A model generated the notes under the pieces. That model saw only the letters and a program-made list of their open reading frames with translations, was not told the DNA's origin and did no database searches. Positions 5,039 to 38,254 of a DNA stretch of 64,000 nt are shown piece after piece; the first letter of the stretch is position 1, and each line of letters opens with the position of its first letter. Origin of the DNA: a phage. The DNA lies in the sequence record PZ452582.1; one strand, given 5' to 3'. The translations under genes and the position numbers were made by a program.

Positions 5039-5275
5039 ATGAAAATTGTTATGGGATGCTTAGCAGTTTGTTTAGTTGCATTAGCAGCAGTTCCATTTGT
5101 TAGTGTTGAAAATGATACTCAACCTGCGATTGAATCTAGCACCGTTATTCACACTAATGGTAAAATATCAGTTAAAATTGATGATAATCTTCATGTGAAT
5201 ACAAATGGATCTTTAGGTGTGCAAATGGGTAATACCTGCATAAGCACTACTGGAGTAATTACTACTTGCATTTGA
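5039..5275 (+). CDS. Small secreted protein (signal peptide), function unknown
   Basis: GGAGA RBS 5 nt upstream of ATG; N-terminal hydrophobic signal MKIVMGCLAVCLVALAAVPF. Confidence 0.55.
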   Translation: MKIVMGCLAVCLVALAAVPFVSVENDTQPAIESSTVIHTNGKISVKIDDNLHVNTNGSLGVQMGNTCISTTGVITTCI

Positions 5276-5673: not shown

Positions 5674-5988
5674 ATGGAAACTTTAGTAGCAGGTTCAATT
5701 TTTATGGTTTTAGTTTCAGGTGTGTTGGCTATTATTATATACATGCTTCCATGGTTTATTGCTTTGATGCGTGGGTCAAAATCGACAGTAGGAATCTTTT
5801 TCACATCTTTACTGTTTAACTGGTCAATTATTGGTTGGTTTATTACATTTATTTGGTCAATTGCGGGTGAAACTAAAAAGTCTGCACAACCAAATCAGGT
5901 AATTATCATCAGAGAGAGAAGGAATGAAAAGCAAAATTATAGCAGTGTTGCTTTTAATCTTGATGATTATAATAAGTATATACTATAG
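5674..5988 (+). CDS. imm: Imm-like superinfection immunity membrane protein
   Basis: Two predicted TM helices; sits between 43 and 42 where T4 imm lies; 104 aa, whereas T4 Imm is recalled as 83 aa, so the end is uncertain. Confidence 0.55.
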   Translation: METLVAGSIFMVLVSGVLAIIIYMLPWFIALMRGSKSTVGIFFTSLLFNWSIIGWFITFIWSIAGETKKSAQPNQVIIIRERRNEKQNYSSVAFNLDDYNKYIL

Positions 5989-6073
5989 TGTAACGGTTCC
6001 TCTTATGATTCCGACTATTATTTTAGGTTGGAGCTTATTACTGTTACAAGTTAAATATGAATGTATCAATTGA
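5924..6073 (+). CDS. Small hydrophobic membrane protein (49 aa), out-of-frame overlap with imm-like ORF
   Basis: ATG preceded by GAGAAGGA; strongly hydrophobic MKSKIIAVLLLILMIIIS; below the 60-aa track cutoff. Confidence 0.35.
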   Translation: MKSKIIAVLLLILMIIISIYYSVTVPLMIPTIILGWSLLLLQVKYECIN

Positions 6074-31696: not shown

Positions 31697-32635
31697 ATGT
31701 ACAATATTAAATGCCTGACCAAAAACGAACAAGCTGAAATTGTTAAACTGTATTCAAGCGGTAATTACACCCAACAGGAATTGGCTTATTGGAAGGATGT
31801 ATCGGTTGACACAATCCGTCGTGTTTTGAAAAATGCTGAAGAAGCTAAACGCCCTAAAGTTACTATTAGCGGTGATATTACAGTTAAAGTTAATAGCGAT
31901 GCAGTTATTGCTCCAGTTGCTAAATCTGACATTATTTGGAATGCATCTAAAAAATTCATTTCAATTACTGTTGATGGTGTAACTTATAACGCAACTCCTA
32001 ATACTCATTCAAACTTCCAGGAAATTCTTAATCTGCTTGTTGCAGATAAATTGGAAGAAGCGGCGCAAAAAATTAATGTTCGTCGCGCTGTTGAAAAATA
32101 TATTTCCGGTGATGTTCGAATTGAAGGTGGAAGCTTGTTCTATCAAAATATTGAATTGCGGTCTGGTTTAGTTGATCGTATTCTCGATTCGATGGAAAAA
32201 GGTGAAAACTTTGAATTTTATTTTCCGTTCTTGGAAAATCTGCTGGAAAACCCGAGCCAAAAAGCGGTATCTCGACTCTTTGATTTCTTGGTAGCAAACG
32301 ATATTGAAATTACAGAAGATGGCTACTTCTATGCTTGGAAAGTAGTTCGTAGTAATTACTTTGACTGCCATTCAAATACTTTTGATAACAGTCCCGGTAA
32401 AGTAGTTAAAATGCCACGTACTCGTGTGAATGACGATGATACACAAACTTGTTCTCGTGGTCTGCATGTGTGTTCTAAATCTTATATTCGTCACTTTGGT
32501 AGTTCAACCAGCCGAGTTGTAAAAGTTAAAGTACATCCTCGCGATGTAGTATCAATTCCGATTGATTACAACGATGCTAAAATGCGTACCTGCCAATACG
32601 AAGTAGTTGAAGACGTTACTGAACAATTTAAATAA
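31697..32635 (+). CDS. rIIB: rIIB protein
   Basis: 312 aa, same as T4 rIIB; directly follows rIIA. Confidence 0.9.
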   Translation: MYNIKCLTKNEQAEIVKLYSSGNYTQQELAYWKDVSVDTIRRVLKNAEEAKRPKVTISGDITVKVNSDAVIAPVAKSDIIWNASKKFISITVDGVTYNATPNTHSNFQEILNLLVADKLEEAAQKINVRRAVEKYISGDVRIEGGSLFYQNIELRSGLVDRILDSMEKGENFEFYFPFLENLLENPSQKAVSRLFDFLVANDIEITEDGYFYAWKVVRSNYFDCHSNTFDNSPGKVVKMPRTRVNDDDTQTCSRGLHVCSKSYIRHFGSSTSRVVKVKVHPRDVVSIPIDYNDAKMRTCQYEVVEDVTEQFK

Positions 32636-32663
32636 GGGCTTCGACCCTTAACTAAGGAAAATT

Positions 32664-32858
32664 ATGTTAGGTTATCAAGCACGAGTAAAAGAAGAATACG
32701 ATCAATTAATGCTCAAAATTAATGCACTGAGCAAATTTTTAGAAAGTACAAAGTTTCTAACGATTAATGAAGTTGAGCAAGAATTACTGCTTTCACAGTT
32801 CATCTCAATGAAATCTTACGCAGATTGTTTAGAAAAAAGAATTGCACAATTCAAATAA
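32664..32858 (+). CDS. Hypothetical protein
   Basis: 64-aa ORF flanked by hairpins. Confidence 0.45.
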   Translation: MLGYQARVKEEYDQLMLKINALSKFLESTKFLTINEVEQELLLSQFISMKSYADCLEKRIAQFK

Positions 32859-32862
32859 AATA

Positions 32863-32880
32863 AGGGGCTTCGGCCCTTTT
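32863..32880 (+). terminator. Terminator-like hairpin (GGGC-TTCG-GCCC, T4)
   Basis: Short GC stem with TTCG loop followed by TTTT. Confidence 0.45.
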
Positions 32881-32896
32881 GTTTTAAGGAAAAATT

Positions 32897-33226
32897 ATGA
32901 TTTATTGTATGAATATCGGTGATTCCGACATAAAAGAGATTAAACTGCACGGAAACCATCACGCTAATATTGTGTACTGTAATAAATTTGAGTTTGGTCA
33001 CGAAAAACTTGGGTTTCTTTACTGTAATGATGTTATAGTCATGGATAAAAAGGAGCTCGATGAACTTGACCGCGAGTCTTTAGATGAAAATGACCGAATT
33101 TATTACGGCACTCTTAAAGTATATAACGCTTATCTCAGTGGTAAAAAGGAAAGTCTAAATGCAGAAAACGAATCCGGGTTTACAGAGACTATTTCAGATT
33201 CCGACATTTACCCTATCGAACGGTGA
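32897..33226 (+). CDS. Hypothetical protein
   Basis: 109-aa ORF; 3' end overlaps the denB start by 68 nt. Confidence 0.45.
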   Translation: MIYCMNIGDSDIKEIKLHGNHHANIVYCNKFEFGHEKLGFLYCNDVIVMDKKELDELDRESLDENDRIYYGTLKVYNAYLSGKKESLNAENESGFTETISDSDIYPIER

Positions 33227-33716
33227 CTTGACTAGTGAAATGAAGGTCAAAATTGCTGATACAGCAAGATACTCTTTAAAACAAAACCCGAACCAGGATA
33301 AAGCAGAAGTTATTGAAAGATGTCGTATCGCTGTGTACGCAGAATTTTTTGTAGCAGATTGGTTAAGCGGGTATGTTAATAAAGGCCAAGAGGATGTTAA
33401 TGACCCGTATACATACGCATGGGATGTATTGGCGCATCCAAGATACTGCGGGCTTCGTGTAGAAGTTAAGACACACCAAACTGACTCACGTTGGATTTCT
33501 GTAACAACAGGATGCAGCGGAGAGTATCCATACGGTTCTGGAATAAATCTAGGGCCCATTCTAAATCATCAAGTCGCTGACTGTATAATTATATTCAACA
33601 CTAAAGAAATTCATCCAGGTGTCATCCAGTACACTCCGAAGTTCATCGGTGACAGAGAAGACCTTCGTAAGGTTGTAAGAAAAAGCAACTACAACGGATG
33701 GTATCTTTCCATTTAA
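33159..33716 (+). CDS. denB: DenB endonuclease IV
   Basis: 185 aa, same as T4 DenB; position after rIIB; start could instead be ATG 33240. Confidence 0.7.
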   Translation: MQKTNPGLQRLFQIPTFTLSNGDLTSEMKVKIADTARYSLKQNPNQDKAEVIERCRIAVYAEFFVADWLSGYVNKGQEDVNDPYTYAWDVLAHPRYCGLRVEVKTHQTDSRWISVTTGCSGEYPYGSGINLGPILNHQVADCIIIFNTKEIHPGVIQYTPKFIGDREDLRKVVRKSNYNGWYLSI

Positions 33717-33733
33717 AAAATTTTCACAAAACG

Positions 33734-33773
33734 GTTTACATACCACAAGGACTGTGGTACTATACAACTATCG
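33734..33773 (+). promoter_or_regulatory. T4-type early promoter
   Basis: GTTTAC at 33734-33739, TACTAT at 33768-33773; same cassette as at 4972, 37548, 54582. Confidence 0.55.
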
Positions 33774-33790
33774 GCTACGGAGGAGTAAAA

Positions 33791-34054
33791 ATGAAATTTA
33801 AATTTTATTACGCTAAACATAAAATAACTGATGAGTTTGTGTCAGTTGAATATTCTAGCGATGATGAAGGCATGATTTATACTCGCTTGGGACTATCGCA
33901 TTGGGAGTCTGATACGCCTTATTTTTCAACTCCCGAAGAAATTACACGCTTAGTTAATGGTCATATGAATGACCACTGGTGTGTAATTCTTTCAGATAGT
34001 CTTAAAGCGGCTATTAATAGTAATGAAATGAAAATCGCTGAGATTGAACTATGA
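33791..34054 (+). CDS. Hypothetical protein (87 aa)
   Basis: ATG 33791 after GGAGGAG RBS; track ORF start 33698 lies inside the promoter. Confidence 0.45.
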   Translation: MKFKFYYAKHKITDEFVSVEYSSDDEGMIYTRLGLSHWESDTPYFSTPEEITRLVNGHMNDHWCVILSDSLKAAINSNEMKIAEIEL

Positions 34055-34239
34055 GTTCATTGTGGTGGTGTTTTGTTTGGTTAATTAGTATTCCATTAAT
34101 TTGTTTAACATTTACTTTTGTAATGAGGTTATTATGAAAATTTTGAATTCTGTACTTATTGCTTGTGCATGGTGGGTTGCGCAAGTTTCAGCGGTAGTAG
34201 TTGGTATTCACATTTATTACGAATATTTTTAAAAAAGTT

Positions 34240-34269
34240 GTTTACAAGACTGTTCCTCTGTGGTATTAT
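34240..34269 (+). promoter_or_regulatory. T4-type early promoter
   Basis: GTTTAC at 34240-34245, TATTAT at 34264-34269. Confidence 0.5.
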
Positions 34270-34297
34270 TACCCTATCAACTACGGAGGAACAGAAA

Positions 34298-34411
34298 ATG
34301 AAAAAGATTGTTAAAGCTATATGGAATGTAGTTATAATATTAGTAGTTTTGAGTATATTCCCAATCGTTTTAATGATTGATGTATTAAACGCTTACTTTG
34401 GATTTATGTGA
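34298..34411 (+). CDS. Tiny membrane protein (37 aa)
   Basis: GGAGGA RBS; single TM helix VVIILVVLSIFPIVLMI. Confidence 0.4.
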   Translation: MKKIVKAIWNVVIILVVLSIFPIVLMIDVLNAYFGFM

Positions 34412-34418
34412 GGAAAAT

Positions 34419-34616
34419 ATGAAGCGTAAACGCGGTGCTTTTACATTTATTGAATGGTTTTTCGATAATATTTTTCCGGCTTTATTCATTTTCATGCTGA
34501 TTTTCGCCTTAGGTTCAGCTGTAGTTGGAATTTATTTGATGGCGGTTGTCGGAATGGACATTCATCAAAATGGCTTAAAATCTGTGGTTGAAACAATTTG
34601 GAATGGTGTAAAATAA
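34419..34616 (+). CDS. Small membrane protein (65 aa)
   Basis: GAGGAAAA RBS; two hydrophobic segments. Confidence 0.45.
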   Translation: MKRKRGAFTFIEWFFDNIFPALFIFMLIFALGSAVVGIYLMAVVGMDIHQNGLKSVVETIWNGVK

Positions 34617-34723
34617 TGAATTTACTAAGCATTTGGTTTTATATTCTCATGTTTTACGTTGGTGCAAATTTTCCGTATTGGATGGGATGGTCAACAACTG
34701 CATTTGGATTTTATACTCCCTGA
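34616..34723 (+). CDS. Tiny membrane protein (35 aa)
   Basis: TAATG coupling to the preceding ORF; hydrophobic. Confidence 0.35.
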   Translation: MNLLSIWFYILMFYVGANFPYWMGWSTTAFGFYTP

Positions 34724-34731
34724 GGTGAATT

Positions 34732-34947
34732 ATGAAAATTTTTAAAGATGTAAAAGTTGGCGAAATTTTTTGCTTGGATAGTGGTGATCAGTTAATTCGT
34801 ATTTCACCTCTTAAGAGCACTAGCGAGAAAATGACAGTTAACGCTACTTTAGTAAACAACAGTAATGAACGTTTCTGTATTGAAAATGATACTGAAACTT
34901 ATACTGTAGAAGAGTTCTGGGAATTGAGCGTCGACTGCGACGATTAA
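34732..34947 (+). CDS. Hypothetical protein
   Basis: 71-aa ORF with GAGGTG RBS. Confidence 0.45.
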   Translation: MKIFKDVKVGEIFCLDSGDQLIRISPLKSTSEKMTVNATLVNNSNERFCIENDTETYTVEEFWELSVDCDD

Positions 34948-35006
34948 TTTATCGGCCGTGTGTATTCATGCGGCCTTGGAGTAGAAAATAATTAGAGGAA
35001 ATTAAT

Positions 35007-35462
35007 ATGAAATACATGACTGTTACTGATCTGAATAATGCAGGTGCTACTGTTATTGGTACAATCAAGGGCGGTGAATGGTTTTTGGGAACTCCACACA
35101 AAGATATTTTATCTAAACCTGGATTTTACTTTTTAGTGAGTAAACTCGATGGTCCATTTGATAGTCCATGCGTATCTGCACGATTTTATGTAGGTAATCA
35201 GCGTTCTAAGCAAGGGTTCAGTGCAGTTCTAAGTCATATTCGTCAACGTCGGTCTCAGCTTGCGCGTACTATTGCAAATAACAATGTTCCATACACGGTA
35301 TTTTATTTGCCTGCTTCTAAGATGAAACCTTTGACGACAGGATTTGGAAAAGGTCAGTTAGCTTTAGCGTTTACTCGTAATCATCATTCTGAGTATCAAA
35401 CACTTGAAGAAATGAACCGTATGTTGGCTGATAACTTTAAATTTGTTTTGCAGGCATACTAA
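35007..35462 (+). CDS. ndd: Ndd nucleoid disruption protein
   Basis: 151 aa, same as T4 Ndd; sequence recognised. Confidence 0.88.
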
Positions 35463-35635
35463 TGAAAGCTCTATTTGTAATGGGTTACCTATTAGTTTTA
35501 GCCTTATTCACATTGACTGGAATCTTTACAGCTTTAGGTCTACCTCTTAATGATAATGTGGCTGTCGTGATGTGTGTAGGTGGCGGATTTATCTGTTTTG
35601 AACGTTTATGCAAAATGTGTGGTGTGTATGAGTAA
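35462..35635 (+). CDS. Small membrane protein (57 aa; ndd.x-like)
   Basis: TAATG coupling to ndd; hydrophobic; Cys-rich end. Confidence 0.4.
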
Positions 35636-35715
35636 TTTCCATAACGAACATGTGATGCAGTTCTATCGTAACAATCTTAAAACCAAAGGCGTCTTCGGAC
35701 GCCAGTGAGGAAAAT

Positions 35716-35874
35716 ATGAATATCGCAAAATTATTAGGAGTTATTTCATTTATTTGTTGGATAGTAGCATGTGTTTTAACTATCTGTATCGATGCTAGCA
35801 GTGTGTTTTCACAAGCTTTAGCCCAGGGTATGTGTGCATATTTAACATTTGTGTTGTTATCTACTAATGATTAA
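35716..35874 (+). CDS. Small membrane protein (52 aa)
   Basis: GAGGAAAA RBS after a GC hairpin; hydrophobic. Confidence 0.4.
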   Translation: MNIAKLLGVISFICWIVACVLTICIDASSVFSQALAQGMCAYLTFVLLSTND

Positions 35875-36007
35875 GAAAATCTTGGGCTATTCATTAGCCC
35901 TTGCTACTTTATTGGTAGCACTATATTATGGAGTAATGTTCGGATTAATTCAAGTCGTGCTTTTCATTTCTGATGTTATTATGGCACTACATTCACTAGT
36001 ATGGTAA
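35867..36007 (+). CDS. Small membrane protein (46 aa)
   Basis: Overlaps previous ORF by 8 nt; hydrophobic. Confidence 0.35.
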   Translation: MIKKILGYSLALATLLVALYYGVMFGLIQVVLFISDVIMALHSLVW

Positions 36008-36011
36008 ATTT

Positions 36012-37340
36012 ATGCAACTGAATAATCGCGATTTAAAAAGTATCATTGATAATGAAGCATTGGCTTATGCTATGTACACGGTTGAAAATCGTGCTATTCC
36101 AAATATGATTGATGGATTTAAGCCAGTTCAACGATTTGTTATTGCTCGAGCTCTTGATTTGGCACGAGGAAATAAAGATAAGTTTCACAAACTCGCTTCT
36201 ATTGCAGGTGGTGTAGCGGACCTTGGATATCACCATGGTGAAAACTCTGCACAAGATGCGGGGGCTTTGATGGCTAACACTTGGAATAATAACTTTCCTT
36301 TGTTAGATGGTCAAGGAAACTTTGGTTCTCGTACCGTTCAAAAAGCAGCAGCAAGTCGTTATATTTTTGCTCGTGTAAGTAAAAATTTCTATAACGTATA
36401 TAAAGATACTGAATATGCTCCGGTACATCAAGATAAAGAACACATTCCGCCTGCTTTCTATTTGCCTATTATTCCTACTGTTCTTCTTAATGGCGTTTCC
36501 GGTATTGCAACTGGTTATGCAACTTACATTCTTCCTCATAGTGTTTCTTCTGTCAAGAAAGCTGTACTGCAAGCTCTTCAAGGAAAGAAAGTAACTAAAC
36601 CGAAGGTAGAATTCCCAGAATTTCGTGGTGAAGTCGTTGAGATTGACGGTCAATATGAAATTCGTGGAACGTACAAGTTTACTTCACGAACTCAAATGAA
36701 TATCACTGAGATTCCGTATAAGTATGATCGTGAAACTTATGTGAGTAAAATCTTAGACCCACTTGAAGATAAAGGCTTCATTACATGGGATGATGCTTGT
36801 GGTGAGCATGGCTTTGGCTTCAAAGTTAAATTCCGTAAAGAATATTCTTTGAGCGATAACGAAGAAGAACGCCATGCAAAAATTATGAAAGACTTCGGGT
36901 TGATTGAGCGTCGTTCTCAGAATATTACGGTTATTAATGAAAAAGGAAAACTACAAGTTTACGATAACGTAGTCGATTTAATTAAAGACTTTGTTGAAGT
37001 TCGTAAAACTTATGTCCAAAAACGAATTGATAATAAAATTAAAGAAACTGAGTCAGCTTTTCGTTTAGCCTTTGCCAAGGCGCATTTCATTAAGAAAGTA
37101 ATTTCAGGTGAAATTGTTGTTCAAGGTAAAACTCGTAAAGAACTGACCGAAGAACTTTCGAAAATTGAGATGTATTCTTCTTATGTTGATAAACTAGTCG
37201 GAATGAATATTTTTCATATGACTTCCGACGAAGCAAAGAAACTTGCTGAAGAAGCTAAAGCTAAGAAAGAAGAAAACGAATATTGGAAAACTACTGATGT
37301 AGTTACAGAATACACCAAAGATTTAGAGGAAATCAAATGA
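36012..37340 (+). CDS. 52: Topoisomerase II medium subunit gp52 (GyrA-like)
   Basis: 442 aa, same as T4 gp52; sequence recognised. Confidence 0.92.
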   Translation: MQLNNRDLKSIIDNEALAYAMYTVENRAIPNMIDGFKPVQRFVIARALDLARGNKDKFHKLASIAGGVADLGYHHGENSAQDAGALMANTWNNNFPLLDGQGNFGSRTVQKAAASRYIFARVSKNFYNVYKDTEYAPVHQDKEHIPPAFYLPIIPTVLLNGVSGIATGYATYILPHSVSSVKKAVLQALQGKKVTKPKVEFPEFRGEVVEIDGQYEIRGTYKFTSRTQMNITEIPYKYDRETYVSKILDPLEDKGFITWDDACGEHGFGFKVKFRKEYSLSDNEEERHAKIMKDFGLIERRSQNITVINEKGKLQVYDNVVDLIKDFVEVRKTYVQKRIDNKIKETESAFRLAFAKAHFIKKVISGEIVVQGKTRKELTEELSKIEMYSSYVDKLVGMNIFHMTSDEAKKLAEEAKAKKEENEYWKTTDVVTEYTKDLEEIK

Positions 37341-37486
37341 GTCCATTCATAGGTATTACAAGCGCTGCATTAGTATCCGGTAGCATTTTACTGGCGGGTT
37401 TAGGTGTTGTTCCAGCCGTAGCAGGAGGTCTTCTTGCGTTCGGAATTCAACGTGTTATCATGACAGTTATCACAGTCATGCAGTAA
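37337..37486 (+). CDS. Small membrane protein (49 aa; possibly Ac)
   Basis: ATGA overlap with gene 52 stop; Gly/Ala-rich hydrophobic peptide. Confidence 0.4.
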   Translation: MSPFIGITSAALVSGSILLAGLGVVPAVAGGLLAFGIQRVIMTVITVMQ

Positions 37487-37491
37487 TTTTA

Positions 37492-37518
37492 GGGAGAGCC
37501 TCGGCTCTCCCTTTTTTA
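37492..37518 (+). terminator. Rho-independent terminator (GGGAGAGC-CTCG-GCTCTCCC, T6)
   Basis: 8-bp stem followed by TTTTTT, then a 14-nt A run. Confidence 0.75.
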
Positions 37519-37547
37519 TTTCAAAAAAAAAAAAAATTCACAAAACG

Positions 37548-37577
37548 GTTTACAACCAAAGCATACTGTGGTACTAT
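37548..37577 (+). promoter_or_regulatory. T4-type early promoter
   Basis: GTTTAC at 37548-37553, TACTAT at 37572-37577, upstream of motA. Confidence 0.55.
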
Positions 37578-37618
37578 ACAACTATCAACTGCTGATACAG
37601 AATTACGGAGATTAGAAA

Positions 37619-38254
37619 ATGTCTAAAGTAACTTACATCATCAAAGCTTCTAACGATGTTCTGAATGAAAAAACCGCTGCGATTTTAATTACTATTGCTA
37701 AGAAAGATTTCATTACAGCCGCAGAAGTTCGTGAGGTGCATCCAGATTTAGGTAACGCAGTAGTTAATAGTAATATTGGGGTATTGATTAAAAAAGGCCT
37801 GGTGGAGAAATCTGGTGATGGATTAATCATTACTGGTGAAGCTCAGGATATTATTTCAAACGCAGCAACTTTATATGCACAGGAAAATGCTCCGGAACTT
37901 CTGAAAAAACGTGCTACTCGTAAAGCTCGCGAGATTACTTCCGATATGGAAGAAGATAAAGATCTCATGTTAAAACTTTTAGATGAAAATGGATTTGTTC
38001 TTAAAAAGGTTGAAACTTATCGTAGTAATTATCTTGCTATTTTAGAAAAACGCACTCACGGAATTCGCAATTTTGAAATTAACAACAATGGAAACATGCG
38101 AATTTTTGGATACAAAATGATGGAACATCATATTCAGAAATTTACTGACATCGGAATGTCATGTAAAATCGCTAAAAACGGTAATGTGTATCTTGACATT
38201 AAACGCTCGGCAGAAAACATTGAAGCAGTAATCACTGTAGCATCTGAACTGTGA
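37619..38254 (+). CDS. motA: MotA middle-transcription activator
   Basis: 211 aa, same as T4 MotA; sequence recognised. Confidence 0.92.
   Translation: MSKVTYIIKASNDVLNEKTAAILITIAKKDFITAAEVREVHPDLGNAVVNSNIGVLIKKGLVEKSGDGLIITGEAQDIISNAATLYAQENAPELLKKRATRKAREITSDMEEDKDLMLKLLDENGFVLKKVETYRSNYLAILEKRTHGIRNFEINNNGNMRIFGYKMMEHHIQKFTDIGMSCKIAKNGNVYLDIKRSAENIEAVITVASEL

Follow-up and report, generated by a model that had tools for sequence, protein, structure and literature searches.

The window analyzed here, a stretch of 64,000 nucleotides from sequence record PZ452582.1, comes from a T4-like phage of the genus Tequatrovirus. Between denB and gene 52 it holds a dense cluster of very small open reading frames (ORFs), most of which encode hydrophobic products. 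The interval is the denB-to-52 region of T4, called the 'D region'. The 2.4-kb stretch around the cluster matches 572 phage records, almost all of them Tequatrovirus and mostly at 90-98% identity, the closest being Shigella phage vb_GEC_SH_GT (97.8%). The locus is collinear with the T4 reference AF158101 across denB...52 at 95-97% identity, is 95-98% identical to Tequatrovirus genomes, and has the T4 early transcription direction on its + strand. The genes run in the order rIIB, denB.1, denB, an ORF of 87 amino acids (aa), ndd.6, ndd.5, ndd.4, ndd.3/2a, ndd.2, ndd.1 and ndd, followed by a 57-aa ORF, stp, ac, 52.1, gene 52, motA.1 and motA (Table 1).

The original prediction, made from the letters alone, had listed six tiny ORFs starting at 34298, 34419, 34616, 35462, 35716 and 35867, here labeled F1 to F6. 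All six are present, with products of 37, 65, 35, 57, 52 and 46 aa, and five of them fall below 60 aa, as had been said of most. The cluster had also been equated with the 'ndd.x/denB.x region' of T4, and this was right as to the placement between denB and gene 52 but not for F5 and F6, which are ac and 52.1 and belong to neither gene series. Similarly, the correspondence with T4 holds for the collinear region as a whole, but F4 has no T4 counterpart and F2 spans T4 ndd.3 plus ndd.2a. Three ORFs of the same class, ndd.6, ndd.5 and motA.1, lie beyond the six that had been listed.

Table 1. Genes and candidate expression signals of the denB-52 region, in window coordinates (TM, transmembrane segment; SD, Shine-Dalgarno site)
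Feature	Position	Strand	Description
denB	33159-33716	+	context
T4-early-type promoter-like site	33735-33763	+	TTTACA-17-TACTAT with TG, gtttacataccacaaggactgtggtactat; consensus match only; precedes orfA/ndd.6/ndd.5
orfA, soluble ORF, 87 aa	33791-34054	+	PHROG 2390; not hydrophobic; context
ndd.6 homologue, 28 aa	34051-34137	+	one TM; PHROG 8851; ATG on upstream stop (ATGA)
ndd.5 homologue, 32 aa	34134-34232	+	one TM; PHROG 5011; GAGG SD plus ATGA overlap
T4-early-type promoter-like site	34241-34269	+	TTTACA-17-TATTAT with TG; kept in 14/14 Tequatroviruses; precedes F1-F3/ndd.1
F1, ndd.4 homologue, 37 aa	34298-34411	+	N-terminal MKK, then one TM; PHROG 3098
F2, 65 aa	34419-34616	+	basic N-terminus, one TM; Pfam DUF7248; equals T4 ndd.3 + ndd.2a
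F3, ndd.2 homologue, 35 aa	34616-34723	+	aromatic-rich; PHROG 4135; start overlaps F2 stop (TAATG)
ndd.1, 71 aa	34732-34947	+	soluble; context
Hairpin between ndd.1 and ndd	34954-34975	+	9 bp, conserved, no T-run; -16 kcal/mol, z -3.6
ndd, nucleoid disruption protein, 151 aa	35007-35462	+	anchor gene
F4, 57 aa	35462-35635	+	predicted two-helix hairpin; PHROG 5941; start on ndd stop (TAATG), end overlaps stp start
stp, 26 aa	35628-35708	+	not hydrophobic; identical to T4 Stp (activator of host PrrC anticodon nuclease)
UUCG hairpin in stp 3' end	35688-35703	+	GGCGUC-UUCG-GACGCC; -12.2 kcal/mol, z -3.3
F5, ac, 52 aa	35716-35874	+	two TM; PHROG 2501, PF26944; acridine sensitivity/'resistance' gene
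F6, 52.1, 46 aa	35867-36007	+	Pfam DUF7396; ATG overlaps ac stop (ATGATTAA); ends 4 nucleotides before gene 52
gene 52, topoisomerase II medium subunit, 442 aa	36012-37340	+	right-hand boundary
motA.1 homologue, 49 aa	37337-37486	+	hydrophobic; PHROG 3487, identical to T4; ATGA overlap with gene 52 stop
Intrinsic terminator after motA.1	37491-37512	+	9-bp GC-rich stem, then T-run; -18.6 kcal/mol, z -5.4

Every ORF of the cluster matches a PHROG (E 1e-17 to 1e-31). Ac matches PHROG 2501 over residues 1-51 (E 3.7e-25), is 98% identical to T4 Ac and lies, as expected for its family, between stp and 52.1 upstream of gene 52; the database clusters nearest to it have PF26944 as a precomputed annotation and are named 'acridine resistance protein'. 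52.1 matches DUF7396 over residues 1-46 of 46 (81.9 bits against a cutoff of 27), and 14 of its 14 database relatives carry PF24129, while F2 matches DUF7248 over residues 13-63 (69.6 bits against a cutoff of 27) and PHROG 2401 (E 6e-29). The matches of F1 and F3 to PHROG 3098 (E 3e-21) and PHROG 4135 (E 8e-23) are joined by 89-95% identity to T4 Ndd.4 and Ndd.2 and by the T4 gene order. F4 matches PHROG 5941 over its whole length (1-57 of 57; E 2e-27) directly after ndd, and the start of this family overlaps or abuts the ndd stop in the window, in two further loci and in most of the other-genus loci in which the family was found.

In a set of 5.8 billion proteins, relatives of Ac fell into 8 clusters, those of F4 into 3 and those of 52.1 into 14, all of them phage or phage-contaminated records. 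An F4 profile search with HMMER against 1.84 billion representatives gave 14 matches, 11 of which are family members of 47-61 aa; the three long proteins matched weakly are probably compositional matches. PDB sequence searches with F2 and Ac, and with profiles of F4 and 52.1, found no relatives, and no chain matched Ac at E≤10. The only PADLOC match among the ten micro-ORFs, of F1 to KwaA (13.8 bits, E 0.0085), is a hydrophobic match and was rejected as not credible.

The cluster is genuine but was already known. All of its families had been annotated, AF158101 labels the T4 ORFs 'predicted membrane / periplasmic protein', and a passage of a recent preprint that cites the 2003 genome paper places ac in one of three T4 clusters of genes for predicted membrane proteins (bioRxiv 10.1101/2025.06.30.662393), so the clustering is already on record. 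Nearly all of the families are uncharacterized, as had been predicted of the products; the exception is Ac, the only member with a functional lead, encoded by a named gene with a classical acridine phenotype.

The density of the cluster is not due to chance. We counted six ATG-initiated ORFs of 28-75 aa with a TM-like segment on the + strand of 34041-36011, or seven with the ORF at 34298, which the script had fused into a longer upstream frame. The same count in 500 dinucleotide-preserving shuffles was 1.24±1.04, with a maximum of 5, and on the - strand of the interval it was 0. No other 2-kb stretch in the window is as dense in TM micro-ORFs. With nested frames set aside, the + strand of the window has 16 small TM ORFs in all, and 8 of these are packed into the 3.4 kb from 34051 to 37486. 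In the T4-like loci analyzed, the denB-52 interval holds 4-8 TM micro-ORFs on the coding strand as against 0-1 on the opposite one, although one or two of the coding-strand calls come from ndd read out of frame. Elsewhere on the + strand of the window, two small hydrophobic ORFs with good ribosome-binding sites were seen at 5039-5275 and 5924-6073; one product has 78 aa and a possible lipoprotein-like N-terminus (MKIVMGC...), and the other has 49 aa and is very hydrophobic.

One or two TM helices had been predicted for each of the six products, and this is borne out for five of them, in which a 19-residue Kyte-Doolittle window reaches at least 1.6 (maxima of 2.3-3.05), F3 being borderline. The positive-inside rule suggests a single-pass topology for F1 and F2, with the N-terminus inside and the conserved C-terminus of F2 in the periplasm, and a hairpin with both termini inside for F4 and Ac. 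AlphaFold2 models F4 with helices at residues 2-24 and 31-52 and a conserved GLP(L/V) loop between them (predicted local distance difference test, pLDDT, 71). 52.1 is modeled as one continuous helix over residues 2-45 (pLDDT 96), although this monomer model, built without a bilayer, is compatible with either one long helix or a hairpin with its kink at YYG. The N-terminus of F1 (KKIVKAIWN, 34301-34330) resembles the C-terminus of F2 (LKSVVETIWNG, 34575-34613), which may be either a coincidence or a shared interfacial motif. A reading of this likeness as a mark of paralogy was dropped, since the positive-inside rule would put the two motifs on opposite sides of the membrane.

Coding conservation was examined in 36 loci gathered via Ndd (46-98% identity) together with nine GenBank records, and within the genus in an alignment of 14 Tequatrovirus genomes, T4 included. 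F1, F3, Ac and 52.1 are intact in all 14 genomes and F2 in 13, and F4 is present in 3; some 'broken' frames in this alignment, namely ndd where F4 is absent and ndd.5 in three loci, are alignment-edge artefacts. Third codon positions hold most of the variable sites in F2, F3 and Ac. The pooled in-frame ratio of non-synonymous to synonymous polymorphism (pN/pS) is 0.06 for ndd.5, 0.09 for F2 and for Ac, 0.11 for ndd.6, 0.13 for F3, 0.29 for 52.1 and 0.48 for F1, with ndd (0.11) as the benchmark. Read out of frame, the same columns give about 1, the exceptions being F1 and 52.1 (+1 frame 0.21), in both of which the +1 frame is no higher than frame 0. These two lack a clean signal within the genus because they have too few substitutions. 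Close pairs from different genera give in-frame values of 0.22 (F1), 0.18 (F2), 0.15 (F3), 0.18 (F4) and 0.27 (52.1) against 0.9-1.4 out of frame, except for the +1 frame of 52.1 (0.34).

Besides this purifying selection on the frames, protein motifs are kept at greater distances, in phages whose Ndd is only 46-64% identical. These motifs are KAIWN...IFP..(L/F)(M/F)ID in F1, GLKSVVExIWNG at the C-terminus of F2, G.N.PYW.GWS in F3 and (F/L)ER(L/I)....G(V/L)(I/Y)K in F4. In 52.1, YYG and QVVLFISD are invariant, and the motif at larger distances is YYG...VLFISDVI; at ~90% conservation across genera it is among the most conserved micro-ORFs between genera, and it lies directly upstream of gene 52 in 27 of the 27 loci in which it was detected. 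The frames are thus kept in relatives, across Tequatroviruses and other genera, which is the check that the original prediction had named. An Rfam scan of 32600-37700 at E≤1 found no RNA family, and therefore the region is not an RNA element. We are highly confident that these are real genes for membrane micro-proteins.

Compared with T4, the order, strand and junctions are the same, and amino-acid identity is 90-100% for F1, F2 (residues 26-65), F3, Ac and 52.1. The differences lie in Ac, which has one Thr more than T4 Ac (the +Thr variant), and in F4 and the 87-aa gene after denB, both of which the window phage has and T4 lacks. Two further differences concern the reference record. In AF158101, one base is missing after ATGAA at the F2 start, within 34419-34440 of the window, which splits the gene into ndd.3 and ndd.2a; 'ndd.3' results when the F2 N-terminus is read out of frame, and 'ndd.2a' is the part that stays in frame, begun at an internal Met. 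The full 65-aa F2 is found in 13 other genomes and in a resequenced T4 (OZ209057.1, 798-995 of the extracted locus), and ndd.3 is therefore either an annotation artefact or a stock-specific frameshift; the GenBank annotator of one record had earlier remarked on the partial match. In addition, the codon annotated as the start of the 42-aa T4 ndd.4, which falls within 34283-34300 of the window, is ACG in 13 of 13 other genomes and lies inside the GGAGG SD site, and the conserved start is the second Met, 5 codons downstream, which gives 37 aa.

The content of the D region is mosaic. F4 is missing from 11 of the 14 sampled genomes, T4 counted, and the gap is a clean 166 bp, after which the stp ATG falls exactly on the ndd stop. 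A tblastn search with F4 returned 220 phage records: ~22 resemble Tequatrovirus (≥90% identity), 15 resemble JS98, and the other 183 are for the most part T4-like phages of Klebsiella. F4 is a widespread gene that T4 lacks: it occurs in roughly 22 of ~570 Tequatrovirus records and is the norm in Klebsiella-infecting T4-like phages. It is 100% identical in 18 records, F4-bearing Tequatrovirus phages among them, and this identity together with the clean gap suggests recent loss or lateral exchange. The 87-aa ORF after denB is present in 13 of the 14 Tequatroviruses, T4 being the one without it, and has two divergent allelic forms with a pN/pS of 0.5.

Both stp and clear ac genes are confined to Tequatrovirus and near relatives. 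In other genera, the ac slot is filled either by distant Ac homologues or by an unrelated two-helix family of ~52 aa with a G(V/A)W(V/I)P loop. This family, M(I/V)(I/L)(I/L)VFIELI...G(V/A)W(V/I)P(S/G)..., lies just upstream of the 52.1 homologue and is found neither in the window nor in T4. The distant Ac homologues are syntenic, align with a 92.8% hhalign probability (E 4e-7) and share the motif W...T..(D/E).SV.SQ...Q, by which measure the Ac family is broader than had been recognized. Annotation of such small genes is uneven: among 8 non-reference GenBank records, 52.1 is omitted in 6 and ndd.6 in 7, stp and ndd.2 are often missing, and some records give micro-ORFs spurious names such as 'naphthalene 1,2-dioxygenase' and 'outer membrane protein'.

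The two promoter-like sites share the form GTTTACA-N17-TG-extended -10. Good ribosome-binding sites had been predicted throughout, and these are present at 34298 (GGAGG, 8 nucleotides before the start) and at 34419 and 35716 (GAGG, 5 nucleotides before the start, both with GTGAGGAAAATATG), whereas 34616, 35462 and 35867 have a weak SD site or none. The overlapping junctions that had been described alongside them are found at these same three starts, where the ATG lies on the upstream stop (TAATG at the first two, ATGATTAA at the third), and therefore point to translational coupling rather than to good ribosome-binding sites. The GAGGAAA site is conserved, appearing in divergent homologues as '...EEN(I)M' in the upstream translation. 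Of the RNA hairpins, the one between ndd.1 and ndd has a stem pair that is U·G, C-G or U-A depending on the phage. The UUCG hairpin in stp sits 4 nucleotides upstream of the ac SD site and could stabilize the mRNA or modulate ac translation. The terminator after motA.1 closes the transcription unit. A study of T4 places the transcripts of ndd.2-ndd.6, stp, ac, 52.1 and motA.1 in the early class (PMC9697503 Table S2).

Functional evidence is available for Ac. Deletion or mutation of ac makes T4 acriflavine-resistant, and Ac expressed alone sensitizes E. coli to ampicillin and, by about 3 logs, to acriflavine (bioRxiv 10.1101/2025.06.30.662393). The same study reports acriflavine resistance from the substitution G38R and continued acriflavine sensitivity for the +Thr variant, the form found here. 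G38 is present in the window protein, within the loop motif SVFSQALAQG; in the SQALAQG loop into which G38R falls, S-Q...Q is conserved across genera and G38 itself is variable. Obstruction of AcrAB-TolC by Ac is a proposal of those authors (bioRxiv 10.1101/2025.06.30.662393), and a 2026 PNAS paper repeats the idea as an assumption (PMC13250531). The transporter inhibition suggested in the original prediction for the whole cluster agrees with this still unproven hypothesis, and for Ac only.

Small proteins of the E. coli AcrZ type, which tune host transporters by binding them in the inner membrane, offer a comparison, being similar in size (~50 aa) and nearly all TM helix, although a pump link has been proposed for Ac only among the micro-proteins. 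Ac has no sequence similarity to AcrZ (no PDB chain at E≤10 and no Pfam match), and the PDB includes AcrB-AcrZ complexes. AcrZ has one helix, whereas Ac has two predicted helices and a conserved polar loop, and the effects are opposite, with sensitization by Ac as against enhanced export with AcrZ. A partnership of the AcrZ type, in which Ac would bind AcrB, is so far hypothesized.

The shift of phospholipid synthesis toward phosphatidylglycerol after infection has been known since 1968-69. T4 phages with the deletion saΔ9 lack about 3.4 kb comprising 52.1, ac, stp, ndd, ndd.1-6 and denB. They are viable, with a yield of ~50%, but no longer stimulate phospholipid synthesis; in rIIΔDD2, a deletion that shares part of this interval, it is the specific stimulation of phosphatidylglycerol that disappears (PMC6071114). 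The best explanation overall, to which we give a probability of roughly 60%, is that the cluster encodes early micro-proteins of the inner membrane that are not essential and that modulate the envelope machinery of the host. Two T4-early-type promoters, together with upstream read-through, would bring about transcription in the first minutes of infection, and translation would start from strong GAGG/GGAGG SD sites or by stop-start coupling. The products, of 28-65 aa with one or two TM helices and a short conserved polar motif, would be inserted in the host inner membrane; we infer translation, insertion and any molecular target from the features described above. Each micro-protein would be embedded in the membrane and act there independently, binding or modulating some component of the host envelope, and not as part of one machine. 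Papillomavirus E5, a very short TM viral protein thought to bind host membrane proteins in the bilayer, offers an analogy of principle with no homology.

Within this explanation, Ac would raise the intracellular level of acridines and other efflux substrates, the likeliest route being interference with AcrAB-TolC-type efflux or with the membrane energization that drives it. At least one other micro-protein would account for the phospholipid (phosphatidylglycerol) stimulation that disappears with deletion of the region. In laboratory hosts the set is dispensable, and between phages its members would be reshuffled as a mosaic pool that comprises ten or more micro-protein families. The specific mechanism, with Ac acting on efflux and another member on phospholipid synthesis, is put forward tentatively, at somewhat less than even odds. 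A still more definite version, in which denB-52 is a mosaic toolkit of bilayer-embedded modulators of host inner-membrane enzymes, Ac blocks AcrAB-TolC and one product of ndd.2-ndd.6 or 52.1 switches phospholipid synthesis toward phosphatidylglycerol, is unlikely to hold in all its parts.

Several observations weigh against an envelope-modulating role. The lipid phenotype maps only to the 3.4-kb deletion, in which stp, denB, ndd and ndd.1 are missing as well. A link between Ac and AcrAB is a hypothesis put forward in a preprint, and the strong sensitization to ampicillin by Ac would also fit non-specific membrane damage. The searches of the 5.8-billion-protein set and the PDB, as well as the F4 profile search, found no relatives outside T4-like phages. 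F3 is below the TM threshold (1.42 against 1.6), and pN/pS within the genus gives no clear signal for F1 (0.48) or for 52.1, which is higher in frame (0.29) than in the +1 frame (0.21). A literature search found no T4 ribosome-profiling study. Additionally, the T4 proteome did not detect the products of ndd.2-ndd.6, ac, 52.1, stp or motA.1, although it did detect Ndd and, as an early protein, Ndd.1 (PMC9697503 Table S2). This non-detection is weak counter-evidence because tiny hydrophobic proteins are expected to escape tryptic mass spectrometry.

Among the alternatives, the one that survives best is counter-defense, in which each micro-protein would neutralize a membrane-acting abortive-infection effector of the host or a prophage and would matter only on particular wild hosts. 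The cluster lies among genes with known roles in host conflict, namely denB, ndd, stp (PrrC/EcoprrI) and rIIA/B (against Rex). T4 can do without the set on laboratory strains, its presence is mosaic, as the scattered occurrence of F4 in Tequatrovirus and its frequency in Klebsiella T4-likes illustrate, and extra families fill the same slot in other genera. However, PADLOC gave no credible similarity to known defense or anti-defense proteins, no host-range phenotype has been reported, and conservation as high as that of 52.1 across genera is ill-suited to an arms race. We regard this explanation as improbable, though worth keeping in view.

It is less probable again that some of the micro-proteins, chiefly 52.1 and perhaps Ac too, serve the phage DNA-replication/topoisomerase complex as membrane tethers or cofactors and do not modulate host proteins. 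The invariable position of 52.1 directly upstream of gene 52, 4 nucleotides away here, and its high conservation between genera would fit such a role, and the introduction of the preprint, citing Miller 2003, names topoisomerase genes 39 and 60 as further loci of acridine resistance (bioRxiv 10.1101/2025.06.30.662393). Adjacency, however, may reflect operon structure only, and saΔ9, which has neither 52.1 nor ac, still replicates with a half-normal yield (PMC6071114). Moreover, Ac alone sensitizes uninfected E. coli to acriflavine, and the phage topoisomerase is therefore not needed for that effect.

Superinfection exclusion and lysis timing, both raised in the original prediction, fare slightly worse. 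Genes of the Imm/Sp type or of the T, RI and RIII-partner type would likewise encode small, early, membrane-located proteins acting on the envelope, and the neighbors rIIA/rIIB are annotated as membrane-associated and as affecting lysis on lysogens. In T4, nevertheless, the genes for exclusion are imm and sp and those for lysis inhibition are t, rI and rIII, and all of these lie elsewhere in the genome. The T4 proteins at those loci are unrelated in sequence to the micro-proteins, none of the ten micro-ORFs matches a superinfection exclusion (Imm, Sp), holin, antiholin or spanin family in PHROGs or Pfam, and no matching phenotype is reported for a D-region deletion, saΔ9 being described only with halved yield, acridine resistance and the lipid phenotype (PMC6071114). 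Neither function finds support here, and both are very doubtful for this cluster.

The least probable explanation, that the ORFs are untranslated and functionless by-products of a T-rich, AT-rich spacer and hydrophobic by composition, could draw on the shuffles, which still yield 1.2 hydrophobic ORFs per 2 kb and as many as 5, on the missing mass-spectrometric detection in T4 and on the many GenBank records in which 52.1, ndd.6, stp and ndd.2 are unannotated, but it is largely refuted by conservation, given frames intact in 13-14 of 14 genomes, pN/pS of ~0.1 in frame against ~1 out of frame with third-position bias in F2, F3 and Ac, amino-acid motifs kept across genera where synonymous sites are saturated, conserved SD sites, the absence of such ORFs from the opposite strand and the genetic phenotype of ac.

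In summary, the denB-52 region holds a compact, conserved and dispensable set of proteins that are among the smallest of phage proteins, and which we consider best explained as early modulators of the host envelope. For the T4 reference, the comparison calls for two corrections of annotation: ndd.3 and ndd.2a are one 65-aa DUF7248 gene, and ndd.4 starts at its second Met. The set bears on how Ac makes infected cells accumulate acridines, and thereby on efflux-pump inhibition, and it bears on which gene drives the stimulation of phosphatidylglycerol synthesis by T4.

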